Both the position numbers and the translations under genes were made by a program. From the NCBI GenBank assembly GCA_044229845.1, contig JBGASG010000011.1, positions 32,001 through 96,000 on the forward strand: DNA of 64,000 bases, in the 5' to 3' direction. This document shows, one piece after another, positions 5,966-63,671 of the stretch (positions within the stretch are counted from its first letter, which is position 1; every line of letters begins with the position of its first letter). The DNA comes from Candidatus Obscuribacteraceae bacterium (GTDB taxonomy: Bacteria > Cyanobacteriota > Vampirovibrionia > Obscuribacterales > Obscuribacteraceae). Under the pieces are notes generated by a model. It was not told the DNA's origin and made no database searches. It saw only the letters and a list, made by a program, of their open reading frames with translations.

Positions 5966-6117
5966 ACCCCTTACCTCGTTGACCTGAAACTGTCACTTTC
6001 AGTATCGACCTTTTGAAAGCTCTGCACATCGTCCATTCGACAGACTTTGCTAGTCCTCAGGAACGATGTTTGCACAGCTTCCAGCGGCAAAAATGTCTTA
6101 GTGAACGAGGGAAAGCA

Positions 6118-11994: not shown

Positions 11995-12789
11995 ATGTGG
12001 CTTTTTATTTGTGTTTTTCTGATTGCGTACATGTATCACGGACTTGGTATCACGCTCGGTTATCATCGTTTGCTCTCGCATCGAGCGTACAAGGCTCCGA
12101 AGTGGCTTGAATACTTGATAGTGCTCGGTGGTTACCTGGCTATGGAAGGCTCGCCGATTTTCTGGGTATCGACCCACCGCCTGCATCACCGGTTCTCAGA
12201 CAGACCCGGCGATCCTCACTCGCCGGTGGATGGGCTCTGGCACGCCTTTGCCGGCTGGATGATCAAACCGCGGGTTTTTGTTTCTTCAGAGGAAAGCAGA
12301 CGACTGGCACCAGACCTCTACCGCGACCCGATCTACAGAGCTTTGCATTGCGCCCACAGCGGCATGGAAGGCTGGCTGTGTTTGACGATCTCCGCGATAT
12401 TCAGACTGGGGATCTTCCTTCTATTCGGTCCCGTTGTCTTTTTCGCTCATTTGCTTGGAAGTTTGCTGGCATTTTCGGCGCCGCTGATCGTCAATCTTTT
12501 CTGCCACATGCCCTGGCTTGGCTACGAGAGCCATGCCTGCGGCGACCAGAGTCGCAATGTGCCGGTGGTGGCATTACTTTCCTTCGGCGAAGGATGGCAC
12601 AACAATCATCACGCGTTTCCAGGCTCGGTGCGATTCGGGCTAAACCCACGCGAATTCGATATGACCTTCCAGGTAGCCCGTCTCTTGCAGGCGGTGGGAT
12701 TGATCCGCGACCTGGCAATCCCTCAAATCGTGCCGGTCAGCCAGGTGGAAGAAAGCAAACCGCTGGTGAAAAATCATCCTAAAGGATGA
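11995..12789 (+). CDS. Membrane fatty-acid desaturase (delta-9/DesC-like)
   Basis: His boxes HRLLSH, HRLHH and GEGWHNNHH; DPHSP. Confidence 0.95.
   Translation: MWLFICVFLIAYMYHGLGITLGYHRLLSHRAYKAPKWLEYLIVLGGYLAMEGSPIFWVSTHRLHHRFSDRPGDPHSPVDGLWHAFAGWMIKPRVFVSSEESRRLAPDLYRDPIYRALHCAHSGMEGWLCLTISAIFRLGIFLLFGPVVFFAHLLGSLLAFSAPLIVNLFCHMPWLGYESHACGDQSRNVPVVALLSFGEGWHNNHHAFPGSVRFGLNPREFDMTFQVARLLQAVGLIRDLAIPQIVPVSQVEESKPLVKNHPKG
12774..12789. promoter_or_regulatory. TCATCC-N4-GGATGA operator candidate
   Basis: TCATCCTAAAGGATGA overlapping the desaturase stop, upstream of the PaaA-like gene. Confidence 0.6.
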
Positions 12790-12877: not shown

Positions 12878-13696
12878 ATGAAGATTTACGATACCGGCGA
12901 TACGCTGCCTGCGGAGTACCGAGCAGCTCTGATTGACCTGCTCTCATTCCAGGCTGACTCTGAATTTGCCGGCGGGCAGCGGGTGGGCGAGAATATGCGC
13001 TTTGCACCGCGCCCGGAGGAAGCCTATCGCCTCTCGAAAAAAATGATGGAAGAATGCGGCCATGGCTGGTATTGCTGGCAACTTCTGGAAGAGCTGGGTA
13101 TCGACGTTAACGCCCGGGTTGTCGAACTGGTCACCAATCCGCATAACCCAGACCCCAAGAAAGTGCGCGTCATCAATGGCTTCAAACACGAAAACTGGAA
13201 ACGTTTTTTCGACGAGTGGGCTGACGTTGCGATGTTTTCCACCGTGGTGACACCGGGTGCTGTTGCTTTTCTCGGACAATACCGAGAATCTTCCTATCTG
13301 CCCTGGCGCCGAGTCAGTGAGAGGATTTATCAGGAAGAGAAGGGGCATCTGGCCTTCGGCGTCTGGGCGGCGCGGCGCGTAATCGAATTCGATGGAGAAG
13401 CTGGGCGTGAACGCTTGCAAAAAGCGATACCCAAGTTTATGGCTATGGGACTCGGATTCTCCGGGCGTCCAGAGGACGAAAGCAAAAACTTCGCCCGTTA
13501 TTTCGAAATGGGCCTGAAATTAAAAACGTCCGACCAGCTGCAAGATGAGTATCTCGAGATAGTCTCGAAGCGTCTTTCCGTGCTGGGCTTAGAAATGCCT
13601 GCCAGCGTCGAACCCGACTACGAGATGAGGTTCGGCTATGGAATCGATGACGTCCAGACGCCCGAGCGGCTGCAGCCTGTCGGTAAGAGTAAATGA
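12878..13696 (+). CDS. PaaA/BoxB-like ferritin-fold diiron protein (acyl-CoA epoxidase family)
   Basis: LPAEYRAALI...QADSE, EECGH, WAD, SSYLPW, EEKGH align by eye with PaaA; GAGGAG SD. Confidence 0.85.
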   Translation: MKIYDTGDTLPAEYRAALIDLLSFQADSEFAGGQRVGENMRFAPRPEEAYRLSKKMMEECGHGWYCWQLLEELGIDVNARVVELVTNPHNPDPKKVRVINGFKHENWKRFFDEWADVAMFSTVVTPGAVAFLGQYRESSYLPWRRVSERIYQEEKGHLAFGVWAARRVIEFDGEAGRERLQKAIPKFMAMGLGFSGRPEDESKNFARYFEMGLKLKTSDQLQDEYLEIVSKRLSVLGLEMPASVEPDYEMRFGYGIDDVQTPERLQPVGKSK

Positions 13697-22380: not shown

Positions 22381-22667
22381 GAGTTGTCTTTACAAGGTCG
22401 AGCTTCGGTCGTTGCGGAAGTGGAAGTGGAATCAGTCTCAGGTATCAGTGTATGCATCAATCTATCCGAACAAAAGACACAAGACATCCGCACTGAGGAT
22501 GATTACCGTCTGGTAACTAGCTCAAAGACTCCCGCTCAGCCTTTAGGATGACTGCAATTCTAGATTCACTCCTGGGATTGAAGACATGATGTTCCCTCGC
22601 GCTGATAATCCAAGTATAGCTACAAGGAGTTCCGTCTCTCTTAACTTCAGTCTTCAGTCAGACTCTC

Positions 22668-24446
22668 GTGTTAAGCGCAAAATACAATCCGTTCCGCGCT
22701 CTCACTTCGACACTGCGAGGTCGACTAGTCCTGCTCGTCTGTCTGGCTACATTGCCTGCGGTTCTGTTTACGCTTTATATGGCAGAAGGTGAACGGACGG
22801 CAACCTTGAAGCGGCATGAGGACGAAGGACAGCAAATTCTGAGAACCATTTCTCGCGATCATCTATACCAGATTGCCGGGGCCAAGAGTCTTTTGCAATG
22901 GCTGGCAGACAAGCTGGAAAATGACGAGAGTATTTCTTTTCTGCGTGACGCCAATTATCTCAACGCCTTTCTCTCAGGCTACCCGCAATTGGGAAACATT
23001 GCCGTCCTTGAGCCCAACGGAAATGTTTACGCCAGTGCTCGACCGCTAACTGAGCCGATTAACATGTTCAATTACGAGGCTATTCAGCGAGCCCTGAAAT
23101 CCCATGAGATTGAAACAGGCGGATATGCAATCGGTCCGATTGTAAAACGCCCGCTTTTGCACCTCTCGAAAGCCGTACGAGATAAAAGAGGAAACGTACG
23201 TTGGGTTGTCTTTGTGGCGCTCGATCTGGAGTACTTAAGCAAGCTGTGTGAACAGGCACAACTACCCGGCGAGCAAGTGCTTCTAATTGTCGATCGCGAT
23301 GGAACTGTACTGGCACACTCCAAAGCCGAGCACTCGACAGAGTACGCCACAGGTAAGCGAGTTCGTGAATTAGCTGAGCACGAGAACTCTCAAGGCGGTG
23401 ATCAAGTTCGACAGCCGGGCGCCATTGTTTTTAAACAAACGCCTTTGCAGGTGCCCGGTCTTTCGCTGGCAGTTTCCATTCCCACCAAACGAATACACGC
23501 CGAGGCCAATGCATCGTTTATTCGCATGACCACTATTCTTTCACTCCTGACTCTGTCTACAGTAGCTTCGGTTGTCTTTCTCGAAGAATTTTCGTTGCTC
23601 CGTTCTTTGCGATATCTGTCCACATGTACCCGTCGCTTTGGAGATGGAGACTATTCGGTGCGCATGAAAATTCCTCGCGGCTACGGCGAGCTGGAGCGCA
23701 TGGCCGATGTTTTCAACACCATGGCTGAACAGCTGGCGCAAAGGCATCAGGAAATCATAGCCTCCAACGCTCACTTCGACAAACTAACTCGTCACCTTCA
23801 AATTGCTCGCGAATCGGAATGCTTGAGAATTGCTCGGGACCTGCATGATGAGGTCGGGCAGGTATTGACCAGCATTAAGTTGGATTTGAGTTGCTTTCAG
23901 CCGCACTGCACTCAAAAGGATACGCTGCCCTGTGAAAACCACGTCGATCTGATCAAGACCAAGCTCGACGACCTGATTTCGTTTATCCGCACAATCGCAT
24001 CAGACTTGCGTCCACCAGTCCTCGATCGGATGGGGCTGGTAAAAGCCATTCAACTTCTGGCAAGAACCATCGAACGACAGAGCGACTTGATGATCGAAGT
24101 CGAAGCGCAGGTGGAAGAACCCCTCGATTGGCTGACATCAATCACCGTTTATCGGATTGTGCAAGAATCGCTGACAAATGTAGTAAGACACGCCCAGGCA
24201 ACTGAGGCAACCGTACGATTATCCACGGATGGGAGTCATATCCAGTTGAAAGTGCAAGACAACGGCAAGGGGTTTGTCGAGCCACAGAGCAACGAGCGAG
24301 AGGCACTGGGCATTCTGGGCATGCGAGAGAGGACTCGTTTGATAAATGGCACGTTCCTGATCTACAGCGGGATCGGCCGCGGCACCACTGTTGAGGCGTC
24401 TATTCCACAAGTGCAGCCTAACGAAAATGCGCATCTTGCTAGCTGA
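22668..24446 (+). CDS. Membrane sensor histidine kinase (Cache-like, HAMP, HisKA_3)
   Basis: IARDLHDEVGQ, QESLTNVVRHA, DNGKGF, LGILGMRER; two TM segments. Confidence 0.95.
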   Translation: MLSAKYNPFRALTSTLRGRLVLLVCLATLPAVLFTLYMAEGERTATLKRHEDEGQQILRTISRDHLYQIAGAKSLLQWLADKLENDESISFLRDANYLNAFLSGYPQLGNIAVLEPNGNVYASARPLTEPINMFNYEAIQRALKSHEIETGGYAIGPIVKRPLLHLSKAVRDKRGNVRWVVFVALDLEYLSKLCEQAQLPGEQVLLIVDRDGTVLAHSKAEHSTEYATGKRVRELAEHENSQGGDQVRQPGAIVFKQTPLQVPGLSLAVSIPTKRIHAEANASFIRMTTILSLLTLSTVASVVFLEEFSLLRSLRYLSTCTRRFGDGDYSVRMKIPRGYGELERMADVFNTMAEQLAQRHQEIIASNAHFDKLTRHLQIARESECLRIARDLHDEVGQVLTSIKLDLSCFQPHCTQKDTLPCENHVDLIKTKLDDLISFIRTIASDLRPPVLDRMGLVKAIQLLARTIERQSDLMIEVEAQVEEPLDWLTSITVYRIVQESLTNVVRHAQATEATVRLSTDGSHIQLKVQDNGKGFVEPQSNEREALGILGMRERTRLINGTFLIYSGIGRGTTVEASIPQVQPNENAHLAS

Positions 24447-25056
24447 CGATCACTCGATGTTCCGCGCCGGACTGCGCCGGATAATCGAAGACTGCCGACC
24501 TGGTGTTTGTATCGTAGAAGCCGCTTCGTGTGATGAGTGCTTGCAGATTGCCCGTGCCGGCAAGTTGGATTTGATAATTCTGGATGTGTCCATGCATTCC
24601 CAAAACAGTCTGGGCATCTTGCCTGAAATCAAGAATTGTCAGCCTCATACACCGATCATGATGCTCAGTATGCATGCCGACACTGAGTTTGTTGTGCAGG
24701 CACTGCGAGCCGGAGCGTCGGGCTATTTGACAAAGGAGCACACTGCAGAGGAGCTGATTCGAGCAATCGACACTGCCCTCTCCGGGCAGCGCTACGTCAG
24801 TTCATCGCTGGCAGAAAACCTGGTTGATCTTATCGCTGGCGGCACATCGGACAAGCCGCACGAAGCCCTATCGGTACGCGAGCGAGAAGTATTCTTGTTA
24901 ATCGCAGCCGGAAAATCACTGTCCGAAATTGCCAGGCTTCTCTCGTTGAGCACCAAGACGGTAAGCACATACAGAACCAGAATCTTGGAAAAAATGGCGC
25001 TCGGTTCCAATGCCGAGTTGATGCGATATGCACTACGCAACAAACTGGTTGACTGA
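24427..25056 (+). CDS. NarL/UvrY-family response regulator
   Basis: MRILLADDH, ILDVSM, GASGYLTK, LuxR HTH LSVRERE...KTVSTYRTRILEK. Confidence 0.96.
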   Translation: MRILLADDHSMFRAGLRRIIEDCRPGVCIVEAASCDECLQIARAGKLDLIILDVSMHSQNSLGILPEIKNCQPHTPIMMLSMHADTEFVVQALRAGASGYLTKEHTAEELIRAIDTALSGQRYVSSSLAENLVDLIAGGTSDKPHEALSVREREVFLLIAAGKSLSEIARLLSLSTKTVSTYRTRILEKMALGSNAELMRYALRNKLVD

Positions 25057-27524: not shown

Positions 27525-27540
27525 TCATCCGAAGGGATGA
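27525..27540. promoter_or_regulatory. TCATCC-N4-GGATGA operator candidate
   Basis: TCATCCGAAGGGATGA, intergenic. Confidence 0.65.
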
Positions 27541-27619: not shown

Positions 27620-28030
27620 ATGTCCACGAGTCTCAAGTTGAAGCGCCCGAAAGCCACCGCCCTCTCCGGATTTGCTCCGCTTTTCCGGCCCCCCGACCAC
27701 GTTTATCTGCAGAGTATCGCCTCCTGGTTGACCGCAGTCAGTATGTATTACCCAAAGTCAGGGCGTCATCTCCAGAAGTTTCATATTGAAGCTACTGAGT
27801 GTGGTGTTGATAAGATGGGTGTTTTGTTCAAGCTGGCTTTCGGCACTCCCAAGCAGTATGCGGCAATTCTTGAAAGCTGCCAGTCATTGAGTGAAGAAGA
27901 TCTGAATGACCTTGCCGAGAACGCATTGCTTCGCCCCCTTACGCAGTTAGCAGAAGATTTGCGAGCGGCCCGAAGCCCGTACAAATGGCTGGCGCTGAGC
28001 GTGGTCGAGGTTTTGAAAACGACGAAGTAA
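27620..28030 (+). CDS. Hypothetical protein
   Basis: ORF fills the gap, preceded by a perfect TCATCC-N4-GGATGA site. Confidence 0.55.
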   Translation: MSTSLKLKRPKATALSGFAPLFRPPDHVYLQSIASWLTAVSMYYPKSGRHLQKFHIEATECGVDKMGVLFKLAFGTPKQYAAILESCQSLSEEDLNDLAENALLRPLTQLAEDLRAARSPYKWLALSVVEVLKTTK

Positions 28031-31804: not shown

Positions 31805-32149
31805 GTGAGGTCTTTGACTTTGATTCTCCATGATAAAGAAATTGTCTGTCGCGACTGCTCTGCACCGTTTCTGTTTTCTGTTGGTGAACAGGAGTTCTTT
31901 CACGCGAAAGGACTGACCAATGAGCCTAAGCGATGCGCCAAATGCCGGTTGCTTGCCCGCCACCAGAGAGAAGGAGCGGAAAGCCCCCTGAATAGAATTC
32001 CGTGTGCAAACTGTGGCGCTGAAGCGTTCGTGCGTTTTACTCCAAAGGGATACCGGCCAGTGCTTTGCATAGACTGCCTGCTCTCGCACCGTCACTCTTC
32101 GGAGTTAAGCGATCTTTCTGCCGGCGTTGGCATTGACCCCGCCTGCTAA
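31805..32149 (+). CDS. Zinc-ribbon / CxxC-x17-CxxC domain protein
   Basis: DKEIVCRDC...FSVGEQEFF...PKRCAKC; CANC...RPVLCIDC. Confidence 0.88.
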   Translation: MRSLTLILHDKEIVCRDCSAPFLFSVGEQEFFHAKGLTNEPKRCAKCRLLARHQREGAESPLNRIPCANCGAEAFVRFTPKGYRPVLCIDCLLSHRHSSELSDLSAGVGIDPAC

Positions 32150-32883
32150 GGTGAGCACGCAGCCCCGAGATACCGCTCCGCCTCCACCGCTTTTGGAAAA
32201 AGAATGCTACTTTCTTTATGAATGTGCACGCGCAGATCATGATCCATGCGGCTCAGTCCATCCAACAATGCACGCCAGCTATTGCATGCGCCCTCTGGAG
32301 GCGTGTAATCGTTGGACAGTTCCCTGAGTTTCTGGAGCGCCAATCCTGCTTCCTGATGCTCAAACTCCATCTGATTGATCGGATTTTGCACCGAGCCGAA
32401 GCAACCGGGCTTGGGACGACCGGAGTCCATGCCACGCAGGAAGGGAAACAAGATCATCTCCTCTTTCATCATGTGCGGCTCCAGTTCCGCTCGCAAAGCC
32501 TGATAAACCAAGGAGAACTCCACCATCTGTGGTGCGCGCTCGCCGTGGACGCGAGCCACCTTCTCGGCTAAGGCTGTTAATCGCGGCAGTTCCTGCTTCA
32601 AATAGGTATGATGAGTTTGCTCGATATGGTCGACCAGCTCAGTCAAGCTTCTACCCAACCAAACTTCTGCAGGCTCCTCGGACCGCGCCGCTTGAGCGTC
32701 GGCATCTTGCAACTCCTTGATCACACCTTCGACATTCAACCCGCGAGCGCCACATGCATCAGCGAGCGTCTTGCCGCCACCGCAACAAAAGTCGATTTTA
32801 TACCGATCGAACACCGCCGCTCGTGTGGGCTGCTCAGCCAGCAAGCTGCCGACAGTCTTCGTGCCGAATCCGTTGGTATCCAT
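32146..32883 (-). CDS. ric: Iron-sulfur cluster repair diiron protein Ric/YtfE
   Basis: IDFCCGG (ScdA_N), HHTYL, HMMKEE.ILFP, EH, HIHKE. Confidence 0.96.
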   Translation of the reverse strand: MDTNGFGTKTVGSLLAEQPTRAAVFDRYKIDFCCGGGKTLADACGARGLNVEGVIKELQDADAQAARSEEPAEVWLGRSLTELVDHIEQTHHTYLKQELPRLTALAEKVARVHGERAPQMVEFSLVYQALRAELEPHMMKEEMILFPFLRGMDSGRPKPGCFGSVQNPINQMEFEHQEAGLALQKLRELSNDYTPPEGACNSWRALLDGLSRMDHDLRVHIHKESSILFPKAVEAERYLGAACSP

Positions 32884-33012
32884 AACGACTCCTTTATCCC
32901 CTGAATGAGAAATTCGCAATAGCACGATGTTAATGGTGCCATATCGGGAACCAGCTCGTATGCACCGAAAGAACGATTGCGAGCGTGAGTGTCATTCAAA
33001 CTGTCCGAAAGA

Positions 33013-33028
33013 TCATCCTTTGGGATGA
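33013..33028. promoter_or_regulatory. TCATCC-N4-GGATGA operator candidate
   Basis: TCATCCTTTGGGATGA between divergent ric and nnrS-like genes. Confidence 0.7.
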
Positions 33029-33104: not shown

Positions 33105-34922
33105 GTGAGAGCATTGGCTTCTTCAGCAACAGTTTTACTGACCGGTGAAACACTCATACCGGAAATCCTCAGACAGATACCACACAGCCGAGTTGTGTTT
33201 GACAAATATGGACTGAAGGGTTGCGGCGGGGCCGACGGACCATACGAATCCCTGCGGGTGTTTGCGCGCGCGCACGAAGTCGATCTGCAGCGCTTGATCC
33301 AAGAGCTGGAAGAATCGAACTCATCGGTGAATGAATCGAGTTCAGATCAAATAGCACCAGCCTTGGGTGATGTCATTTATCGCCGCTTTTTTCTGGCGGC
33401 TGTAGCATTTCTATTAACTGTGGGAGCAAGCTGGGGAGCTGCCATTCTATGGTCTATAGGTAGTTCCGGAACGTTTCAGACTGCATCCGTCTTCGACATA
33501 CAAGCACACGCTCAGGCTCAGGTGTTCGGCTGGATGGGGCTTGTGATCATGGGTTTTGCCTACCAGGCTTTTCCCCGCTTCTGGCATACAGAACTGAGAA
33601 ACGCCACCCGGGCTAATCTTTCCTTCTGGGCAATGGTAGGCGGCGTCGTTGCTTCGATGATCGGCATTTACGCGGCTCAATGGGCGCCGTTCGCGTTGCC
33701 GCTTACCATCTTGGGCGGGTGCCTGGAAGTTTTCGCCGTTTCACTATTCGCCCTGGAGCTCTACTGCACTTACCAATACAGCCGTAAGCAGTTTGAGCCT
33801 TACATGGCATACGTATTTATCTCCGTTTTCTGGTTTCTAATCGGCACCATCCTCAATGGCATACATAGCGCTGCTCTCGTTAGTTCAGTACATTACTTGC
33901 CGATGACGAATGCCGCCTTCTGGTTGCAAACTCCCATGCGTGATGTGCAGTTCCATGGTCTGGGAATGACAATAATTATCGGCGTGTCACTGCGCACGTT
34001 GCCTCATATCTTCGGAGTCAAACAGCCTTCGCGCGCGTTTGCCTGGTGGGCGCTTGTGGCGTTGACTGCAGCTGTTGTGGTCGAGACGGTCTTATCCCTG
34101 ACAGGTAAGTATCCCCACTGGTCGGTATCCTTGGTGCTTTTAACGGTGGCAGCGACGGCAGTTTGCAGTTTCCGCCTCTGGCAAAAGTTTCCCGACGGCG
34201 ATCGCTCGGAAAAATTTATCAAGGCAGGCTGGATCTGGGTCTTGATCTCACTTGTGATGATGGTAGCTGCCAGTGTCAACTTCCAACTAACCGGGCTGCC
34301 TGCTACTCACGCTTACATGGGCTCGATCCGTCATGCCATTACAGTCGGTTTTATCAGCTTGATGATCATGGGTTATGCAGCGAAGGTCGTCGCTACGCTA
34401 AACGGACTGGACACACACAAACTGACCTCGCTTGCCATTCCTTTCGTGTTAGTGAATCTCGGCTGCGCCATTCGGGTAATCGGTCAATCTTTGACAGACG
34501 CGTATCCTGGAGCATTTCCTGTGGCGGGCGTGAGCGGCACTCTTGAAGCTTGCGGTATGGCAATCTGGGGGCTGCACATCACGAGGATTATCCTCACCGG
34601 CAAATTCCATTCGGCCGCACCGCGCCCCGCCGGACCGTCCCCTGAGAAAGTGGCTGTCGACATGATCGTGGCAGATGTACTGACCTGGTTTCCGGAAACG
34701 GAATCTGTGTTTGTGGAATTTGGCTTCCGTCCAGTTACCAACCCTTTCATGCGCAGGACGGTCGCACGCCAGGTCACCTTGCGTCAGGCTTGCCAACTAC
34801 ATAATATTGAACCAGAGGATTTCGTCGCAATTTTAAATGAAAGCCTGCGTGGTACTGGTTGCAGCGGCAAATGCAATAGCGGACAATGCGAGGCACAGGC
34901 AATGCATGGTCACCATGATTAG
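33105..34922 (+). CDS. NnrS-like multi-TM protein with ScdA_N-like N-domain and DUF1858-like C-domain
   Basis: VFDKYGLKGCGG N-domain; HAQAQVFGW...FPRF and HAITVGF membrane motifs; VADVL...FGFRPVTNP...VTLRQAC C-domain. Confidence 0.8.
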   Translation: MRALASSATVLLTGETLIPEILRQIPHSRVVFDKYGLKGCGGADGPYESLRVFARAHEVDLQRLIQELEESNSSVNESSSDQIAPALGDVIYRRFFLAAVAFLLTVGASWGAAILWSIGSSGTFQTASVFDIQAHAQAQVFGWMGLVIMGFAYQAFPRFWHTELRNATRANLSFWAMVGGVVASMIGIYAAQWAPFALPLTILGGCLEVFAVSLFALELYCTYQYSRKQFEPYMAYVFISVFWFLIGTILNGIHSAALVSSVHYLPMTNAAFWLQTPMRDVQFHGLGMTIIIGVSLRTLPHIFGVKQPSRAFAWWALVALTAAVVVETVLSLTGKYPHWSVSLVLLTVAATAVCSFRLWQKFPDGDRSEKFIKAGWIWVLISLVMMVAASVNFQLTGLPATHAYMGSIRHAITVGFISLMIMGYAAKVVATLNGLDTHKLTSLAIPFVLVNLGCAIRVIGQSLTDAYPGAFPVAGVSGTLEACGMAIWGLHITRIILTGKFHSAAPRPAGPSPEKVAVDMIVADVLTWFPETESVFVEFGFRPVTNPFMRRTVARQVTLRQACQLHNIEPEDFVAILNESLRGTGCSGKCNSGQCEAQAMHGHHD

Positions 34923-41886: not shown

Positions 41887-42422
41887 ATGTTTCCGACAGT
41901 AGAGAAGACCGGTACGCCTATTCAGCAATTCATCGGCGTATTCAATCAAGAGCACGAACACATTCTTGACTTGATCTTGCAATTAATTTCTAGCTGTGAG
42001 GACTCGAACTTAAAAAGTATGCGTTCAATTGTGGCAGAAATGCGTGCATACTGCGGTCCCCACTTCAGATATGAAGAAGAGTGCCTCTATCCATCCCTCA
42101 TTCAATTCTTTGAGCGTGGGCATATTGAGAGTCTGATCCGCGAGCACGTACGTTGCTCGCAGCATCTGATAAGGTGATTGCGATTGCCAACCAGAGCGTC
42201 CTGAGTCAGTCCGATGCCGTGGAAGCAATTCATCTGATTCGCTCTGGCATTCTGCCACATGTGGGAGGATGTGATGGACTTTCAATATTGATTGCGCGCA
42301 TGCCGGCTGAGAAAGGCATAGAGCTTCTAGCGGCGCGAGAGTTTTCATTGAGAGAGGGTGTCGAATTGGTTGATTGGGTGCGCAAGATTCGAAAGCCAGT
42401 TTTTGCTGCCGCAAGCACTTGA
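41887..42422 (+). pseudogene. Hemerythrin-domain protein split by a frameshift near 42150
   Basis: ORF1 FNQEH...GPHFRYEEECLYP...EH continues in another frame as LAASDK...HVGGCDGL; AGGAG SD. Could be a sequencing error. Confidence 0.7.
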
Positions 42423-42631
42423 GTTCAACATTATCACTTCTGATTCCGACCAGACTTTCCACTCAAGGGAAGGTCTGGTTAGCGTACCGATAACAGCTTG
42501 GTGCTATTAGCAGTACACGATACCCGTCATCCCTGTTGCCGACCGCCTGAGTGATACGCCGCGGCCGCGTTTATCGACACTATAAGCAACCATTACCATG
42601 TTCGCAGTGAGAGCCTGACTGGAGGACGCAG

Positions 42632-43483: not shown

Positions 43484-45172
43484 TTGAGCGTTCTTTTGAC
43501 GTCAGTATTCGGACCGTATGGCGTTGATGACGAATATGGCTGCCGACTGAACGTGATGGAGTTGTTCCACAACCAGGTCACTCGGGAGCAGGGCATATTT
43601 TCGCTGCGCATGAATCACCCCAGTTTCGGGCTCTATATGATCGCCGAGAATCTGAAGTCGCCGGCGGTAGTTCTGGATTTTCCGCTCTTGGAGCGCTTTG
43701 TCGCGGAAGTTAAGCGGGGCTATGAATACATAGGCATCTCGTCGATTGTTGCTAATCTGTGCAAAGTCCAGAAGATGACTGCGCTGATTCGAAAGCATAG
43801 TCCCAAATCCAAAATTGTTGTCGGCGGGCATATTACGGCTATCCGCGACCTGAGCCAACTGGTAGATTGCGACTTCATTTGCAAAGGCGAAGGCGTCTCG
43901 TGGTTCCGTGAATTGTTGGGTGAATCGCCTGAAGATCCGATTCGGCATCCCGCGATACTGTCAACCTTGAATCGCCGGGTAATGGGCGTGCCGTTGCCCG
44001 GTACCGCCGCAGTGCTGATACCAGGTTTGGGTTGTGTCAATGCCTGCTCATTTTGCGCTACTTCGCATCATTTTCAAAAGAAGTACATCGGCTATCTGAA
44101 CACCGGTCAAGAATTGTTCCACACCATGCAAGATATAGAGCGCAAGATTGGTTGTCGCGAGTTCTTCGTCATGGACGAGAACTTCCTGAAGCATCGCACA
44201 CGCGCAGAACAACTGCTCGAAGAACTTATGAAGCACGACAAGTTTTACTCACTGGGCGTGTTTTCTTCAGCCGAGACGATCAATGCCATCGGTGTGGAGT
44301 TTATGGCCAAACTTGGAATAGATTTCGTTTGGATCGGTGTGGAGTCGAAAGCCTCAGTCTTTGCCAAGACGAAGGGCGTCGACTTGAAGGAGACGATCAG
44401 GCAACTGCGAGGATATGGTATTCAAGTCCTGGGTTCGGCAATCCTGTTTTTAGATCACCATACCAGAGAAGGGATGCAGGAAGACATCGATTTCACTTTG
44501 GATCTGGAATCCGACTTTGTGCAGTTCATGGAACTCGGTCCTTTGCCGGGAACCGCGCTCTACGCCGAGTACGAGGAGCAATGTCGCATTCTAAACGACG
44601 TACCCTACAAAGAATGGCACGGGCAGGACAAGATATGGTTCAAGCATCCCCATTTCACACGCGCTGAAACGTCAGTTTACTTGAAAGATGCATTCGAGCA
44701 AGATTACAAACGCCAGGGTCCATCTCTGCTCAGACTGGCAGACACTTCATTGCGCGGATATCGTACGGCCAGCCGGCATGGCGATCCTCGAATTCGCGGG
44801 TTATTGCCGCGTCTGCTCGAGCGATGCAGAACTCTGCGCATCGTGCTGCCGGTCGCCCTGAAGTTCGCAGAGAATGAAAGAACAACGGAGCTGGCGATCA
44901 GCCTTATGTCAGAGTACGACAAAGAATTTGGTGCTACTCCCATCACCACCAGGCTCTCTACTCATCTAATGAAAGGTTTTGCCGAGAAGGAATTGCGTCG
45001 CCTGCGCTCAGGGTATATGCAACAACCGCCTCTGTGCTATCGGCAGTTTAGGATGCCCGTCATCCCTGTGGCGGACCGACTGAAGTCCGCAATTGGAGCA
45101 GCGTGGAAGAATCTCTTTCAGGGCAAAGATGAAAGGCAAGTCGGAGATTGCCATCCTCACTTGCCGGACTGA
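43484..45172 (+). CDS. B12-binding-domain radical SAM protein
   Basis: N-terminal cobalamin-binding-like domain (IGISS...VVGGH), GCVNACSFC, MDENF, IGVES, PLPGTALY. Confidence 0.9.
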   Translation: MSVLLTSVFGPYGVDDEYGCRLNVMELFHNQVTREQGIFSLRMNHPSFGLYMIAENLKSPAVVLDFPLLERFVAEVKRGYEYIGISSIVANLCKVQKMTALIRKHSPKSKIVVGGHITAIRDLSQLVDCDFICKGEGVSWFRELLGESPEDPIRHPAILSTLNRRVMGVPLPGTAAVLIPGLGCVNACSFCATSHHFQKKYIGYLNTGQELFHTMQDIERKIGCREFFVMDENFLKHRTRAEQLLEELMKHDKFYSLGVFSSAETINAIGVEFMAKLGIDFVWIGVESKASVFAKTKGVDLKETIRQLRGYGIQVLGSAILFLDHHTREGMQEDIDFTLDLESDFVQFMELGPLPGTALYAEYEEQCRILNDVPYKEWHGQDKIWFKHPHFTRAETSVYLKDAFEQDYKRQGPSLLRLADTSLRGYRTASRHGDPRIRGLLPRLLERCRTLRIVLPVALKFAENERTTELAISLMSEYDKEFGATPITTRLSTHLMKGFAEKELRRLRSGYMQQPPLCYRQFRMPVIPVADRLKSAIGAAWKNLFQGKDERQVGDCHPHLPD

Positions 45173-46011
45173 ATCACACAAATGGCCGTCGGACATTTCA
45201 CACGCAACGCGAGGGATTCATAAACCCTGAACCTGTAGTTCATGTCCGATGGTCCCAGATATGCAATTTGAAGGTCTTCGGCAACAGCAATGTCGAAATT
45301 CTGGACGCCTGTCGATACGAGTGCCGCAGTGCCGGCAGGTATTTGTGGGCTCCACATGATGCCGTCTTCGACAAGCTTGCCCAACTGTTCAAGCTCAAGT
45401 GCCGGCGACTCTTTAACTGGTTTGATTAGCGCTTCGTACATATCGACAGAAGTTACCAGCGCGTAGGGGAAGTGGTGCTTTTCTTCCAGAAGCCTGCTGA
45501 TGGCAGCATAGACATCTCTGGCCGGAGCGCCGGCAGTTTTCCAATCGCTCTTTTCGACCCGCAGAGTGCCTGGATAGTTGAGCAATCCGTGCAGGCCGAG
45601 TTCCTGATTTCCGTTAAAGATCAGATTATCTTCGGCATCGCCAACCTGATGCGCAGCCCGCACTGCGTTGGTCAAATCTAGAGGCGCATGCATCTCTTTG
45701 CTCCACTGGACATCTCGCCAATGAAGCAGAAAGTCCTTATATACAATGGGTACACGAATGTAGGTCTGCTGCTCGTGAGTCCTAATTGGCTTGGAGTCGG
45801 GCTTTCCCTCGAGATCGATCTCGGCAGGACCTTCTTCCTCAATCTTCTCCAGAGGCACGCTTTCCACTCCTGCGCCCAGCGGACCATACAACGAGATGAT
45901 GCGGCGGCCAACAACTGTCCTGCGCACCTCCTGGACCGCAGCTTGCATCATCTGAGTTGCCTGCTCTTCGCCCAGCGGCAGTTCAACTACCTTCTGATAC
46001 GATTGCCACAC
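45157..46011 (-). CDS. Family 1 encapsulin nanocompartment shell protein
   Basis: VGRRII.LYGPLGAGV, PIVYKDFLLHWRD, AEDNLIFNG, GLLN, FRVYESLALRVK closely resemble Myxococcus EncA as recalled; AGGAGG SD. Confidence 0.95.
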   Translation of the reverse strand: MWQSYQKVVELPLGEEQATQMMQAAVQEVRRTVVGRRIISLYGPLGAGVESVPLEKIEEEGPAEIDLEGKPDSKPIRTHEQQTYIRVPIVYKDFLLHWRDVQWSKEMHAPLDLTNAVRAAHQVGDAEDNLIFNGNQELGLHGLLNYPGTLRVEKSDWKTAGAPARDVYAAISRLLEEKHHFPYALVTSVDMYEALIKPVKESPALELEQLGKLVEDGIMWSPQIPAGTAALVSTGVQNFDIAVAEDLQIAYLGPSDMNYRFRVYESLALRVKCPTAICVIQSGK

Positions 46012-46402
46012 GCTGACCTCCTTTCGGCCACAAAGGGCCTACAGTCCACTGCCTACCCGTTTTTTCTGAAGATAGTTCTGTCGCCCAAATTTCGTGTTCT
46101 TCAATAAAATGATCTAACAGCTCTCGTATAAGAGCCTGTGACATAGCAGCATCTTCCTCAATCATTCTGCGAAGAAAGAAGCTGTGATCAATGGCCTTTC
46201 GAATTAGAATCGAAGGATTGTCACCCCCCATGTCCGTCAGCGCCGCGGCGGTCTCCTCTTCCTCCATCAGGATGTGATGTTTCAACCTGGTCACCAAGTC
46301 TTCAGGAGTTGACGGCTCATCAAGCAACTGCAAAAGCGTGCGCGCGTGGTCGTCAATGTTATGCAAAAGCTGAGGTAGAGTCACGACTTTCCGGGGACGC
46401 AT
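45983..46402 (-). CDS. Hemerythrin-like encapsulin cargo with C-terminal targeting peptide
   Basis: DH...HILMEE...DH...HFIEE ligands; WTVGPLW resembles the (L)TVGSL cargo-loading peptide; directly upstream of the shell gene. Confidence 0.82.
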   Translation of the reverse strand: MRPRKVVTLPQLLHNIDDHARTLLQLLDEPSTPEDLVTRLKHHILMEEEETAAALTDMGGDNPSILIRKAIDHSFFLRRMIEEDAAMSQALIRELLDHFIEEHEIWATELSSEKTGRQWTVGPLWPKGGQRVAIVSEGS

Positions 46403-46415
46403 TTAGTATTGCTCT

Positions 46416-47741
46416 TCATTCAAGTAGTTGATCGACGTGCGTACGTTGTCCAAACGTCAAAAGCATGTTCACGACAAATACTAAGACAGCCGACAGTTCG
46501 ATCACTGCCGATACAGGGAGCAGCCGCCAGGCGGCTCCGAGAAAACCTTCGTAAGCGGCAACCTGGGAGAAGACACGCAACGCACAGCCGCCGGTGAGAA
46601 GAAGTAAGGCCGCAAACATCAGTTTGCTGCTGAAAATGTAAGTTCGCCCCAGAAATGAGGGGAGCACACGTGGACCGACAGCAAATACGAGGGTTGACAT
46701 GAAACCGACAGTGACGGCGTGTCGCGAAGCACCGGCAAAACCGGCGGCATCACCGAAGACTGCGGACAGAAGTCCGAGCAACGCTGATACTGCCAACCAG
46801 ACGTAGGCGAGGCGCACAAAAAGAGGAAACGTGCTGTGAACTCCGGTGATTTTTGCCGCCGCTACCGGCGGGTGGAATAACTTAAGAGAGGCTATTGCCA
46901 CAAGGACCGAAATAACGATACCTACCGCCGAAACTAGATGTGCTCCGGAGGCAAACGCTACGGCAGAAAAGAAGTTTAAAGTGGTGGCAGCTAACAATCC
47001 TTTGCCAGAGCATTGGCGCAACCCGAGAAACGCAGGCATCCACTTAGCAGTCAGTCCCCAGGCCACCGGCAATATAAAAGTCCAAACTGCAAAAGTGACA
47101 ACGGTCAGCCTTTCGGCAGCAGACATCGCCGGCAACTGAGCTGTCCAAGCCGCGCAGAATGCCTGCCAGAGATTGATAGTGGTTGCGCACAAAAGCCCTA
47201 CAGAACCGATAACCACAGCCAACGCGGCACTATCCACTGCGCGATTAGTGTGCTTCTGCGCTCGGTGTCCTCTAATCGAGCTGCCGATGAAACACACAAC
47301 TGCCGATAGTTCGAGCACCGCCGACAGTGGCAACAATACTTGCCACATGAAAGGACACAAAGTTACGCCGAAGCGTAGTGATACTCCCATCGTCCAGAGA
47401 ACGAGTATCGTCCAACCGTCGAAGAAGCGAGCATCAGCTAGTTTACGCAGGTTGGGAAGAGAGTAATACCCGATACCGAGAATAAATGTGGTGATCCAGC
47501 CAAAGAGCTGTGCATGCCCATGAGCTTCTACCCAGGCAGCCGAAGCTGCTGAGCTCGACTGACTGTGACTGATGCCCAGAAGGTTCCATACTCCGACCAG
47601 GGTTCCTGGAACCAGCATAAAGAAGAGCCCGGTGCCAACATACGACATGAGCAACAAAATCAAATGTTTTTCGCGCAACAGGAACTCCGGCGCGGAGTTG
47701 AGGTGCGATCGGCATTTCTTTGCAGGCAAGCTATGTTGCAT
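46416..47741 (-). CDS. NnrS-like multi-TM protein
   Basis: HGHAQLFGW...YYSLP and RHAVTVGF...GPRVLP motifs; paralog of the membrane core of 33105-34922. Confidence 0.8.
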   Translation of the reverse strand: MQHSLPAKKCRSHLNSAPEFLLREKHLILLLMSYVGTGLFFMLVPGTLVGVWNLLGISHSQSSSAASAAWVEAHGHAQLFGWITTFILGIGYYSLPNLRKLADARFFDGWTILVLWTMGVSLRFGVTLCPFMWQVLLPLSAVLELSAVVCFIGSSIRGHRAQKHTNRAVDSAALAVVIGSVGLLCATTINLWQAFCAAWTAQLPAMSAAERLTVVTFAVWTFILPVAWGLTAKWMPAFLGLRQCSGKGLLAATTLNFFSAVAFASGAHLVSAVGIVISVLVAIASLKLFHPPVAAAKITGVHSTFPLFVRLAYVWLAVSALLGLLSAVFGDAAGFAGASRHAVTVGFMSTLVFAVGPRVLPSFLGRTYIFSSKLMFAALLLLTGGCALRVFSQVAAYEGFLGAAWRLLPVSAVIELSAVLVFVVNMLLTFGQRTHVDQLLE

Positions 47742-47846
47742 TCTAGCGCCATCCGTAAGATATCGAGACACTTTAAAATATCCCACGTTATTGCCTTATT
47801 TGTGTCCATCCTGCGATGGATCGACGTCTGCCGCAGGCGGTTTCGC

Positions 47847-47862
47847 TCATCCTAAAGGATGA
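47847..47862. promoter_or_regulatory. TCATCC-N4-GGATGA operator candidate
   Basis: TCATCCTAAAGGATGA about 105 nt upstream of the nnrS-like/encapsulin operon. Confidence 0.7.
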
Positions 47863-56983: not shown

Positions 56984-57427
56984 TTAAGTGCATCCCTTTC
57001 GTGGTGTCATCGGCACACTGCTGCACAGAGGACTCTTTGACTCTTCGACCAAGTCATCAAGACTGACTTTGGCAAAGGCCGACTCCACCGCCAGCGTTGC
57101 TTCGGATAGTTGCCGATGAAGCGGACAGAGATTGAATCCGTGAGACTCGATTCCCAGTGGGCAGGACCTGATCCGTTCAATCGGATCGACAGCATTGACG
57201 ACATCGAGAATGGAGATTTTCTTCGCGGACTTGCTTAACGAGAAACCGCCTCCCAGCCCGCGTTGAGAATTGACCAACTTTGCTCTGCCCAGTTGCTGCA
57301 TTATCTTATTCAGGTAACCAAAAGGCACTTTGGTTACCTCGGCAATATCTTGTCCTCGGCAAGAAGCGTCCTCCATGGCCAGATAGACCATAGCCCGCAG
57401 GGCGTACTCAGCAGTTTGAGAGAGCAT
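56984..57427 (-). CDS. Rrf2-family transcriptional regulator
   Basis: MLSQTAEYALRA, SQRGLGGGF, CPLG...LCPLH, distal Cys. Confidence 0.95.
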   Translation of the reverse strand: MLSQTAEYALRAMVYLAMEDASCRGQDIAEVTKVPFGYLNKIMQQLGRAKLVNSQRGLGGGFSLSKSAKKISILDVVNAVDPIERIRSCPLGIESHGFNLCPLHRQLSEATLAVESAFAKVSLDDLVEESKSPLCSSVPMTPRKGCT

Positions 57428-57598
57428 TAGCGACCTGTATATATGTAGACCTTGTTATACAGATTACCATGAACACTAATGTGCAGCATGGTGTAGTTCA
57501 GAATCAAACCCGCAGAATCATCCTTTTGAATGAGGCATCTTCTCTGTTGAATTGTAAAATGGATATTGAGGTCCAGATATCAATAAAGGAAATAAATC

Positions 57599-61676: not shown

Positions 61677-63425
61677 CTAAGGAGAAAGTTGCCTGACAGA
61701 CTCACCAAGTTCGAGCAGCTTCGCTTCTCGGTTCTTCAACTTTTGATGGGGTAAAGCTGACTGTGAGCCCAGGCTGTACACATCCAGCTCGCCCCGCAGG
61801 CGCGCCTGCAAAGTATCCAGAATCCACACGCCCGTGCCAGGAATATACGACGTTGATCCCTGCGCAACTCGCTTAGCAAACAACTGGGCGGCCGTCTTCG
61901 GTCGCTTGACCGGCAAGCGGGATGATGACGCAGATGGGCCCGCAGCTGCTCGCGGCGCAGGCGGTGTCGGGGCAGGTTGCTTGAAACCATAGCCGGCATT
62001 GGTCAACTGGATGCCCCACGCCATCTTGGTGCCGCCAATCGATGCATTAAACAGGCAGCGTTCCAAAAACTCCTTATCCGCTTTTTTCTTTTCAGCGGCG
62101 TTCATCTGGGATTGTTGCTTGAATACCAGATCCGCAGTCTCATAAGCAGAAACACGGGCTGCCAATCGTTCGTCGTGGGCGGTAAGCATGCCCTTCAGCA
62201 CGCTTATGTGCTCACTCAATTGAACCGGTCCGATTTTGCCGCATTCGCGATCGAGCCGTGTTTTCGCACGTTTGGCGGCATAGTTACCGGCAATGCGGCC
62301 AATAATGGGACCCGTAACGATATTGGCACCAGATATGGTGAAGCCAATGCCGGCCGGTCCAGCCAGTCTTGGGTTACGATCTGCAACCGCTAACAAACCG
62401 CAAAGCGAACCCATATAGCCACCTGTAGTGGCGGCGGACAACTGGTTGAGATATGAGACGTTGCGTGCTCCCAGGCGGCGCTTAGCCCGTACATGAAACT
62501 GGATATACTCAGCCAAAGCCATGTTGCGAAAATCTTTCAGAACGACTCCTTCCGCCGCCAGCATCTGTCGCTCCGACTCAGGCAAAGAGCTCGTACGCGC
62601 GAGTAATTGCTCACGTTCGGCCAGTGTGCGGTCGATGGCTACACACAACTCCATCGCTCGTTTTTGGGTGGCTTTGGCGTCGAGCCCTCGTTTTCGCAGC
62701 TTACAGTCGTTGACGGCATCGAGTAAGGCTTCGATGAGAACGCCTCCGGTCATGATTGAATGACTAGTCAAAAGCAAAATTGGACCAGCCTTAAGTGCTC
62801 CTCGATTGGCTGTTGCAGGTCGTTGCCACGTGCGCCATCTTTCAGCTGCAATTGTGGTGATACCGGCTGTAGCGACTCCGGAGCCGGCCAGGTTGTACAC
62901 GAACACACGCCATGGCTTAATTCGACTCTTATCAGTCGTGGACATGCGGAAGCGGGTATTTAGTATCAACAGCTCCACTTCATCTTGCAAAGCTTGATTG
63001 GCCAAACTATCAATGCGTGCTGTCACTACTGGCAGGTCGCTTTCATCAGCAGACTTACTCTCCGCCCAGTTGTTCACAGCAATCAGTTTTTTGGGGGCAC
63101 CTTTCGCCATTGGCTCGGCCGTTGCCGTATCGTCTTGCGCCAACCCTGCTTCGTGTGCTGAATCGGTTGCGTATGCTGAATCGGTTGTCGCCGTTGCCTC
63201 GTCCGTCACCGCTCCGTCCGCAACATCGATGCTGGTCATTGTTCCGAAAACTTTCGCAGCGCTCCCTGATTCCGAATCTGAAGAAGCCGCAGTAGCACTT
63301 GCACCTGAACAGTGCAACTTCTGCGAAGGTAGCGCCGAAAAATCTTGCGCTCTAGCATAGTTGGTGCTGCCAGTAACCAGACAGCAGACACTCAGAGCAA
63401 CATGAAAGGCTGGGCGGATATTCAT
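61677..63425 (-). CDS. Hypothetical exported/membrane-associated protein
   Basis: Long ORF, signal-peptide-like start, Ala/Ser/Asp linker, alternating coiled and Gly-rich hydrophobic segments. Confidence 0.75.
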   Translation of the reverse strand: MNIRPAFHVALSVCCLVTGSTNYARAQDFSALPSQKLHCSGASATAASSDSESGSAAKVFGTMTSIDVADGAVTDEATATTDSAYATDSAHEAGLAQDDTATAEPMAKGAPKKLIAVNNWAESKSADESDLPVVTARIDSLANQALQDEVELLILNTRFRMSTTDKSRIKPWRVFVYNLAGSGVATAGITTIAAERWRTWQRPATANRGALKAGPILLLTSHSIMTGGVLIEALLDAVNDCKLRKRGLDAKATQKRAMELCVAIDRTLAEREQLLARTSSLPESERQMLAAEGVVLKDFRNMALAEYIQFHVRAKRRLGARNVSYLNQLSAATTGGYMGSLCGLLAVADRNPRLAGPAGIGFTISGANIVTGPIIGRIAGNYAAKRAKTRLDRECGKIGPVQLSEHISVLKGMLTAHDERLAARVSAYETADLVFKQQSQMNAAEKKKADKEFLERCLFNASIGGTKMAWGIQLTNAGYGFKQPAPTPPAPRAAAGPSASSSRLPVKRPKTAAQLFAKRVAQGSTSYIPGTGVWILDTLQARLRGELDVYSLGSQSALPHQKLKNREAKLLELGESVRQLSP

Positions 63426-63655
63426 GACAGGGTCTCGGTGGAGATGCAGCAATGGTTAGAGTGGCACAAACAAAGGCCTTATGGCACACCCTGTAGAACG
63501 AACTGACATCGTCCCGAGGATGCAAATAAACAGATCGAAAGTGCCGAAGTAATACCTCCGGCACTTTCGATCTGGTACAAAGCTGAATTTTGCGCGATGG
63601 GTAAAGCGATACCTGTTTCTGCTTTTACGATAGTCATCGAATGCAAAACAGCGCA

Positions 63656-63671
63656 TCATCCTTTCGGATGA
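63656..63671. promoter_or_regulatory. TCATCC-N4-GGATGA operator candidate
   Basis: TCATCCTTTCGGATGA, intergenic. Confidence 0.65.

Follow-up and report, generated by a model that had tools for sequence, protein, structure and literature searches.

What does an encapsulin nanocompartment do directly behind a membrane protein of the NnrS family? The question is raised by three co-oriented genes in a 64,000-nucleotide (nt) stretch of DNA from a Candidatus Obscuribacteraceae bacterium (positions 32,001 to 96,000 of contig JBGASG010000011.1, here C20, assembly GCA_044229845.1), which we call the window. The genes encode, in order, an NnrS-like membrane protein, a small putative cargo protein and an encapsulin shell. 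An initial annotation, made from the letters of the window, had proposed an operon in which the membrane protein works with an encapsulated hemerythrin to handle nitric oxide (NO) or iron. Here we find that the conserved unit is the cargo and shell pair only, and that the three-gene arrangement is found only in this genome. We propose that the pair is a two-gene encapsulin system with a probable di-iron cargo, which in this genome has probably been recruited into a nitrosative/hypoxic stress response.

Direct reading of the sequence placed the genes on the minus strand, with the NnrS-like gene at 46416..47786 in its longest reading, the cargo gene at 45983..46402 (139 amino acids, aa) and the shell gene at 45157..46011 (284 aa, GTG start). 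The 13-nt gap between the first two genes (46403-46415) and the 29-nt overlap between the last two (45983-46011) are as the initial annotation had described them. The Shine-Dalgarno sequence of the shell gene had been placed in the codons just after the cargo's targeting peptide, and AGGAGG does lie at 46017..46022 on the minus strand, within cargo codons K127-G128-G129 and 5 nt ahead of the shell GTG start at 46011. The cargo had been said to end in GRQWTVGPLW, which is wrong: this peptide occupies residues 116-125 and is followed by 14 more residues (PKGGQRVAIVSEGS). Apart from the position of the peptide end, the sequence observations of the initial annotation (gene order, ligands, Shine-Dalgarno sequence and palindrome) were confirmed.

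In relatives, the cargo gene stops directly after ...W-P-x-G-G, and the window copy is without that stop. Because the stop codon is missing, the window cargo reads 10 residues further and overlaps the shell gene. The cargo/shell junction is covered by three RNA-library contigs with zero differing letters, so the overlap is not an assembly error and the change is real. The 139-aa product consists of a predicted four-helix domain (residues 9-115, 46058..46378, minus strand; from an AlphaFold2 model and a 33-sequence alignment), a short linker, a targeting peptide region (G116-P126, GRQWTVGPLWP, 46025..46057, minus strand; from conservation and a complex model) and the 10-residue read-through tail. 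Stop loss is not unique to the window, since one other family representative (P0007) also extends about 10 residues past the conserved ...WPKG end.

The shell protein scored 224 bits against the NCBIfam model NF041155 (encap_f1; cutoff 100), bearing out its assignment as a family 1 encapsulin, and 191.9 bits against Pfam Linocin_M18 (PF04454; gathering score 24.3). It matched 33 sequences of the Protein Data Bank (PDB) at E <= 1e-5. The best were Myxococcus xanthus EncA (4pt2, 215 bits), which we take to be a T=3 shell, and the Q. thermotolerans shell (6NJ8, 210 bits), whereas T=1 shells, including those of T. maritima and M. tuberculosis (Cfp29), scored only 30-42 bits. 6NJ8 is described as the T=4 iron-storage compartment of Q. 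thermotolerans in the available text of PMC6668986. On these scores we assign the window shell to the EncA/IMEF sequence group and not to the T=1 group of the published hemerythrin systems.

The cargo protein was much harder to place. As a single sequence it had no match in Pfam, NCBIfam or the PDB sequences, and PDB searches with the single sequence and with a profile gave chance-level rows only (E >= 0.43). A word-indexed search of 5.8 billion clusters returned three relatives. A full profile search of 1.84 billion representatives returned 37 proteins at E <= 0.001, including one clearly unrelated 1207-aa TPR protein, and a Pfam scan of 36 representatives at E <= 0.01 gave no family besides that of the TPR protein and two chance rows. 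We rejected a PqqD-like reading of the cargo: its 17.7-bit match fell below the cutoff, and no stretch passed.

In an alignment of 33 members, H19, H43, E47, E48, H73, L96, H98, E101, E102 and G122 were invariant, and H14, N15, S74, T120 and V121 were nearly so. Members share a domain of about 110 residues, then a linker of very variable length that is often Gly/Ser/His-rich, then the conserved peptide, as in a classical encapsulin cargo. The Obscuribacterales clade carries WTVGP(L/M)W-x-x-G-G followed by the stop codon, and distant family members carry the canonical (W/L/P)TVGSL form (WTVGSLIG, LTVGSLIG or PTVGSLLG). The window's WTVGPLW is a proline/tryptophan variant of the usual TVGSL motif. 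The translational arrangement recurs in relatives: in ten of them GGAGG falls within the final codons of the cargo gene, a few bases at most before a shell start at GTG, and one (L007) instead has GGAAAGG followed by an ATG shell start. Linkers in six relatives (L003, L004, L006, L008, L012 and L015) reach about 130 residues and are His/Gly/Ser-rich, with SHG/HGG runs, and the window linker is only about 10 residues; the long linkers could be metal-binding or a mere spacer.

When the shell was modeled in complex with residues 100-139 of the cargo, the score was 0.68, and the best control scored 0.00. That mark is reached by 116 of 157 solved complexes and by 2 of 215 mismatched pairs. Agreement between runs was at least 12% of contacts, and partner pLDDT was at least 32. 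In the modeled interface, cargo residues 116-126 meet residues 22-47, 245-248 and 265 of the shell. Structures of encapsulin-peptide complexes have already been solved, and the pass may for that reason reflect likeness to solved structures. The model supports placement of the peptide in the cargo-binding site of the shell, a predicted binding from which we infer loading. Family conservation and the model together uphold the proposal of the initial annotation that the middle gene encodes the shell's cargo and carries a conserved targeting peptide.

AlphaFold2 modeled the cargo with a mean pLDDT of 91 and a pTM of 0.76, and with helices at residues 9-28, 34-59, 65-82 and 89-115. The H/HxxxE/H/HxxxE ligand pattern noticed in the initial annotation is real and conserved, because H19, H43, E47, H73, H98 and E102 are all among the residues invariant in the 33 members. 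When residues are counted on the model from the shared bundle end, the depth is 9 for H19, H43, H73 and H98 alike, and 13 for both E47 and E102. Each helix contributes one ligand element (H19, H43xxxE47, H73 and H98xxxE102 on helices 1 to 4), at matched depths. Invariant His and Glu residues placed in this way suggest the geometry of a two-metal site in an up-down bundle, and the four His and two Glu most likely hold a predicted di-iron site of the hemerythrin/RIC type.

We asked how far the three-gene arrangement is conserved. Cargo and shell genes were adjacent in 18 of 18 related loci (L002-L008, L010-L016, L059-L062 and L066). Some of these loci duplicate others: hits were identical between L004 and L005, between L002 and L011 and between L006 and L013, and the values of L003, L004 and L007 recur in L059-L062. 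Sixteen of the 18 have the cargo gene immediately upstream of the shell gene; of the other two, L008 has it split over two frames, and L066 has a cargo-like gene downstream. A scan of metagenomes gave four cargo-shell loci, apparently repeats of the genome loci, and two weak partial matches without a shell. The cargo was found in 11 of 36 genomes of the same family and in none of 24 genomes from elsewhere in the class. The shell family occurs in the same 11 genomes and as a remnant in a twelfth, the sister species G001 of the same genus. There, at L065 (C39:311000-323000), only shell residues 101-274 remain, in two frames at about 5920-6443 and with no cargo, next to a homolog of the window's NMO-like gene that is itself split by a Mutator-family transposase.

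The NnrS gene is not part of this conserved unit. Searches with tblastn found no NnrS gene beside the pair in 11 loci with 5-6 kb flanks, nor in 7 further loci with flanks of about 1.5 kb. Pfam scans of the flanks of L002-L004 and L006-L008 gave MnmG, a pyridoxal phosphate (PLP) enzyme, an EF-hand protein, a peroxiredoxin-like protein and unknowns. Searches for NnrS-like genes were positive for 11 of the 36 same-family genomes and for all three genomes of a second family, and in none of 11 NnrS-like loci of relatives did a cargo or shell gene lie beside them. Conservation of the nnrS-like adjacency, whose absence the initial annotation had named as a refuting result, was thus not borne out on either side (0 of 18 cargo-shell loci and 0 of 11 NnrS-like loci).

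Two other features of the relatives' loci were observed. At L066 (G027:C69) and at G029:C332, a divergent shell gene (46% identity) has the cargo-like gene downstream (35-39% identity, about 95 residues), which is a second arrangement of the system. Some relatives carry a palindrome upstream of the cargo: TTCTCAT-N5-ATGAGAA in L003 and L004 (at -139 and -152 relative to the cargo start), TTCTCA-N7-TGAGAA in L015 (-176) and the variant TGAGAAC-G-ATTCTCA in L014 (-116). Palindromes of this type presumably bear a loose resemblance to Fur-family boxes. The window genome has three copies, one of them near a start, and no regulon can be drawn for this palindrome because all three lie within open reading frames (ORFs).

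The first gene of the window operon is predicted to encode a polytopic membrane protein of the NnrS family. Its likely start is the ATG at 47741 (46416..47741, minus strand, 441 aa), and the longest ORF begins at the GTG at 47786. The protein scored 23.6 bits against Pfam NnrS (PF05940), below the gathering score of 28, with residues 62-442 aligned to profile positions 20-364 of 371. It has 1163 homologs at E <= 1e-10, several of them named NnrS family protein, and PF05940 was found on homologs at 88% and 69% identity and on most of the 120 listed. A Kyte-Doolittle scan gave 16 overlapping windows across the 441 residues, which merge to about 8-10 hydrophobic regions by this crude count.

The neighbors of NnrS-like genes in relatives point to nitrosative stress. 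In 7 of 11 loci the gene immediately upstream is RIC, Rrf2 or NnrS-DUF1858: L018, L025 and L027 have a RIC gene (ScdA_N plus Hemerythrin) there, L021 and L024 have an Rrf2 regulator and, further out, a hemerythrin or RIC gene, and L019 and L023 have an NnrS-DUF1858 gene. A hemerythrin-domain ORF also lies downstream of the NnrS-like gene in L019. According to the available text of PMC1274295, dnrN (RIC), nnrS and hcp are a recurrent core of the NO-responsive NsrR, NorR and DNR regulons.

We next considered the perfect TCATCC-N4-GGATGA palindrome reported upstream of the operon. It is present at 47847..47862 as TCATCC-TAAA-GGATGA, which extends to GCTCATCC/GGATGAGC, and is one of seven perfect copies in the 5.16-Mb genome, six of which fall inside the 66 kb of C20:29372-95656. 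Sixty permuted half-site palindromes used as a control had a mean of 0.43 copies, and the next best had 3. Allowing at most one mismatch, the genome has 27 sites, 10 of them on contig C20, which makes up 2.8% of the genome, and 9 of those 10 have an A/T-rich center. The C20 sites described here, one of them with two mismatches, lie at window positions 12774, 22536, 27525, 33013, 40952, 47847, 57518 and 63656, and at C20:29372 and C20:118957. Sites in the window stand about 60-205 nt ahead of starts, mostly about 80-105 nt. The motif was found in 17 of 24 same-family genomes with 40 copies, and its reversed control with 0. It also occurs at the NnrS-like loci of two other genera, ahead of the NnrS-like gene in L022 and, in L024, in the stretch that separates RIC from Rrf2-NnrS-like. 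We rejected the readings that the palindrome terminates the upstream acyltransferase gene or that it is a genome-wide repeat: it has no T-run, and its few copies are placed ahead of genes.

The genes that follow the palindrome suggest what it controls. A perfect copy (33013..33028) lies between a divergent RIC gene (32146..32925, minus strand) and an NnrS-DUF1858 gene (33105..34922, plus strand). The former scored 239.7 bits against TIGR03652 (cutoff 204.7), and the latter 49.7 bits for NnrS and 83.4 bits for DUF1858. Other perfect copies stand 89 nt ahead of a gene for a PaaA/PaaC-like di-iron protein (site 12774..12789; gene 12878..13696, plus strand), 80 nt ahead of an unknown 136-aa gene (site 27525..27540; gene 27620..28030, plus strand) and about 204 nt ahead of an unknown 591-aa gene (site 63656..63671; gene 61677..63452, minus strand). 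On C20 outside the window, one perfect copy separates a divergent Usp gene from a rhodanese-Usp-protoglobin kinase operon. A one-mismatch copy (C20:118957), also outside the window, lies at the start of the hcp (Prismane) reading frame, and in the window a two-mismatch copy precedes nrdD. We conclude that the upstream palindrome is a predicted operator of a local stress regulon. The link of the operon to nitrosative stress in this genome is borne out by the operator it has in common with RIC and NnrS-DUF1858, with one-mismatch forms at hcp and the Rrf2 gene. Contig C20 appears to be a stress island tied together by one palindrome, and the regulon and its regulator are apparently undescribed for this lineage.

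The hcp-like gene (L068 2391-3353, C20:118890-119852) covers Prismane positions 1-199 of 513, and an HTH_17 gene comes next, so an insertion may have cut it short. A second, different palindrome, TCCATC-GCAG-GATGGA, was read from the sequence at 47805..47820, between the operator and the NnrS start, and its TCCATC-N4-GATGGA form has one copy in the genome.

Two candidate regulators have sites of their own. A one-mismatch copy (57518..57533) lies 91 nt ahead of an Rrf2-family gene (56984..57427, minus strand), and another (22536..22551) lies ahead of a gene pair for a dCache/HisKA_3 kinase and a NarL-type response regulator (22668..25056, plus strand), an alternative candidate. The Rrf2 protein scored 104 bits in Pfam; its best likeness to an NCBIfam equivalog was to NsrR at 60 bits, below the cutoff, with NsrR, RirA and IscR about equal. 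We consider Rrf2 the better candidate because it lies beside the NnrS-like gene in two other genera, has a site at its own gene and resembles NsrR/RirA/IscR.

To address expression, we drew on public sequencing runs. DNA of the locus is present in 14 runs of 6 studies, whose labels are sludge, activated sludge, fermentation and drinking water, each of them a possible source, and six metatranscriptome runs contain 21-53% of the sampled words. RNA-library contigs from four libraries, each of a different study, cover NnrS and shell at 100% identity. The cargo/shell junction is bridged by RNA contigs in three runs (X15, X16 and X18), and the NnrS/cargo junction in one (X16). RNA contigs of three studies end at 47751, 47759 and 47746, one with an adapter at its end. 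In four runs no RNA contig covered 47788-47950, a hole that, as with contig holes in general, proves nothing. This pattern fits one transcript that starts shortly ahead of the ATG at 47741. Co-transcription of the genes, as the initial annotation had it, is thus supported in part: both junctions are bridged, by contigs that give no proof of strand or of a single transcript.

Taken together, we favor an explanation in which a shell of the EncA/IMEF sequence group would package a small four-helix-bundle cargo via WTVGPLW near the cargo C-terminus, and the cargo's four invariant His and two Glu residues would coordinate two metals in a di-iron site like that of hemerythrin and RIC. The pair has, in this genome, lost its own stop codon and promoter spacing, and it sits 13 nt behind the NnrS-family gene. 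The NnrS promoter palindrome is common to this operon, RIC and the second NnrS gene, with one mismatch at hcp and Rrf2 and two at nrdD. On the simplest view, the operator is that of the NnrS gene, and the cargo-shell pair came under its control by placement behind NnrS. Because the operon's promoter carries the common stress operator, the compartment would probably be produced as part of the nitrosative/hypoxic stress response. The protein enclosed there would be a di-iron protein that handles iron or binds NO or peroxide; the His-rich single-subunit site, the RIC-like pattern and the stress operator all point toward binding of NO, O2 or peroxide or toward holding of iron, as in the published hemerythrin system.

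Several observations weigh against this explanation, and the first group concerns the cargo. We infer metal binding from the model and the conserved residues, and homology searches did not find a hemerythrin. Pfam Hemerythrin (PF01814, gathering score 25.3 bits) was absent from all 33 cargo members even at E <= 10 and from all 36 representatives at E <= 0.01, and a whole-genome PF01814 scan gave no signal at the cargo gene. A comparison by hhalign of the cargo profile with 21 hemerythrin domains, taken from the window genome and related genomes, gave a probability of 0.9% and an E-value of 0.062 over 28 columns around HxxxEE. Foldseek of the cargo model against the PDB gave no match at E <= 0.001. 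VIA-align against 48,161 chains reached a top Z of 10.4 with generic helical bundles, among which the designed di-iron protein 2lff had a Z of 9.3; no hemerythrin, ferritin or IMEF chain was among the best 50 rows, and lower-ranked rows could still contain such chains. Protein-language-model look-alikes scored 0.78-0.81, and the nearest named clusters were all Hemerythrin HHE (PF01814) of similar length, a likeness that we treat as a lead only because the scores were no higher than 0.78-0.80. Since homology is not demonstrated, we call the cargo's ligand pattern hemerythrin-like and stop short of placing the protein in Pfam Hemerythrin. The description "hemerythrin cargo" in the initial annotation therefore stands for the ligand pattern and not for family membership, for which Pfam gave 0 of 33 and the profile-profile comparison was not significant.

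The second group concerns regulation. At <= 1 mismatch the motif was absent from 14 of 14 genome cargo-shell loci and from L066 (the scan covered L002-L008, L010-L016 and L066); because of this absence from the scanned loci of relatives, the stress link is specific to this genome. The center of the operator lies about 95-110 nt upstream of the RNA-contig ends, far for a simple repressor. The published NsrR consensus, as given in the available text of PMC1274295, is gATGyAT-N5-ATrCATc. Compared with it, aTCATCC-N4-GGATGAt has similar half-site letters, but its arms face the other way and its spacing differs. The RNA contigs show neither strand nor a single molecule, and none covered 46076-46345, in mid-cargo, in four runs, another hole that proves nothing. 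Finally, the system has decayed in the sister species and is therefore dispensable.

A possible, though clearly less probable, explanation is that the locus encodes an iron-storage compartment, in which the cargo oxidizes ferrous iron and the mineral forms inside a large shell, with NnrS and the operator a secondary or incidental recruitment. The shell is closest to those of iron-storing EncA and IMEF, as its bit scores show (215 and 210 bits, against 30-42 bits for T=1 shells). At most one ferritin-family (PF00210) match was found in 7 of 11 same-family genomes with the cargo, compared with 1 of 25 without it. These counts are of matches and not of copy numbers, in related and partly incomplete genomes and with no correction for phylogeny, and the window genome itself has three ferritin-family matches. 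Several relatives have the long His/Gly/Ser-rich linkers, and L003, L004, L015 and, as a variant, L014 have the possibly Fur-box-like palindrome upstream of the cargo; against this, its three copies in the window genome all lie inside ORFs, one near a start. Ferroxidase centers of ferritin-like proteins are carboxylate-rich (E, ExxH), whereas the conserved ligands of the cargo are His-rich (H, HxxxE, H, HxxxE) and lie inside one bundle. The cargo also has no sequence relation to IMEF, EncB/C or ferritins. Storage of iron and binding of NO, O2 or peroxide are compatible readings if the compartment sequesters iron released under nitrosative stress.

An encapsulated hemerythrin/RIC-like di-iron protein could serve as a shielded sink for iron or NO in nitrosative stress, replacing the free RIC partner of NnrS genes in related genomes, such that the NnrS-family protein and the nanocompartment cooperate in keeping iron from damaged iron-sulfur clusters out of dinitrosyl-iron chemistry. 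We regard this proposal as rather doubtful. A dedicated three-part machine, in which NO or iron is handled jointly and directly by the NnrS membrane protein and the enclosed di-iron protein, is unlikely. The 13-nt gap, the common operator and the RNA-library contig across the NnrS/cargo junction speak for it, as do the relatives in which the NnrS-like gene lies beside RIC (L018, L025 and L027) or a hemerythrin-domain ORF (L019), and V. cholerae NnrS is reported, in the available text of PMC9246220, to shield the cellular iron pool from dinitrosyl-iron formation. However, the adjacency is found in this genome only: 11 cargo-shell loci are without NnrS, 11 NnrS-like loci are without the pair, and three genomes that have both (G004, G006 and G009) carry them at separate places. 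A closed cytoplasmic shell and an integral membrane protein also offer no evident hand-over of substrate, and in the papers searched there was no literature match combining "encapsulin" and "NnrS". The interpretation in the initial annotation is thus partly supported, in its encapsulin, its cargo and its stress link, and not in its conserved three-gene machine.

That the cargo is no metalloprotein, and that its His and Glu residues bind flavin or heme or serve oligomerization as in EncD, would agree with its generic fold matches and its lack of detectable homology to any metalloprotein family, and EncD is itself a small helical encapsulin cargo that binds flavin (available text of PMC11126975), but we consider it very improbable, as the ligands follow H/HxxxE/H/HxxxE exactly, each helix supplying one element at a matched depth, Hemerythrin HHE makes up all of the nearest named language-model clusters (0.78-0.80, a lead only), and EncD is a two-helix hairpin and not a four-helix bundle (PMC11126975).

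The favored explanation, a recruited two-gene system with a probable di-iron cargo, has both likenesses to and differences from known systems. The published hemerythrin ("Heme") encapsulin system protects E. coli against H2O2 and NO, according to the available text of 10.1101/085266 and PMC8346489, so a nitrosative-stress role for hemerythrin compartments is already in print. Like actinobacterial Heme systems (Streptomyces sp. AA4), the window system encodes, immediately ahead of the shell, a small four-helix cargo whose C-terminal part bears a targeting peptide, and the ligand pattern is hemerythrin-like. Unlike them, its cargo has no Pfam Hemerythrin match, and its family peptide is WTVGP(L/M)W in place of TVGSL. 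Heme systems are reported only in the T=1 sequence cluster (available text of 10.1101/085266), whereas the window shell groups with EncA/IMEF. The hosts differ as well: the census of hemerythrin cargos has 42 actinobacterial and 3 proteobacterial members (available text of PMC8346489), and the window host belongs to the Obscuribacterales. With its EncA/IMEF-like shell and without Pfam Hemerythrin, the window system departs from the published hemerythrin type in its shell as well as its cargo.

Compared with the IMEF and EncA systems (6NJ8 with cargo 6N63; M. xanthus EncA with EncB/C/D), the shell is closest in sequence (210-215 bits), and the cargo likewise joins a targeting peptide, through a flexible linker, to a four-helix bundle of about 110 residues. 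IMEF, like the window cargo, had no ferroxidase motif recognizable from sequence, as far as the available text of PMC6668986 states. Unlike the cargos of these systems, the window cargo has no sequence similarity to any solved chain. Its ligand candidates are His-rich and lie within one subunit, whereas the IMEF site lies between subunits (same text), and no ferredoxin partner gene was seen at the window system. The regulatory side resembles RIC/YtfE/ScdA-NnrS regulons, in that RIC (TIGR03652), NnrS-DUF1858 and the NnrS-cargo-shell operon have a common operator, with one-mismatch copies at Rrf2 and hcp. It is unlike NsrR regulons in the arrangement of that operator, TCATCC-N4-GGATGA in place of the consensus cited above from the available part of PMC1274295.

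In the literature searched we found no encapsulin in an NsrR/NO-type regulon and no mention of an encapsulin in the papers listed there for Melainabacteria, Obscuribacter or Vampirovibrionia. A 2021 census holds one Melainabacteria shell, of cargo type "Minor" and with empty cargo fields (PMC8346489, supplementary file 3). The cargo family is rare and is not assigned in the published census. Apparently new here are the cargo family and its peptide variant, the unusual pairing of shell and cargo, and the genome-specific recruitment of the pair into a newly defined stress regulon.

These findings matter in several respects. Encapsulins are classed by cargo, because the cargo defines function, and naming this family would add a new cargo class, possibly with a new kind of enclosed di-metal chemistry. 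A His-rich, hemerythrin-like site together with a large shell of the iron-storing type would blur the split between detoxifying and iron-storing encapsulins. With the predicted operator, a nitrosative-stress regulon becomes open to testing in non-photosynthetic cyanobacteria of a kind common in activated sludge, and the locus may show how, in nature, a simple gene fusion ties a compartment to a stress response.

Two observations concern neighboring genes. The 3' end of the shell gene overlaps by 16 nt (45157-45172) the 3' end of a convergent gene for a B12-binding radical SAM protein (43484..45172, plus strand). Further along, a hemerythrin-domain reading frame at window positions 41887-42462 on the plus strand is broken by a TGA, and the two ORFs called there (41887..42177 and 42153..42422) may be one broken or frameshifted gene.

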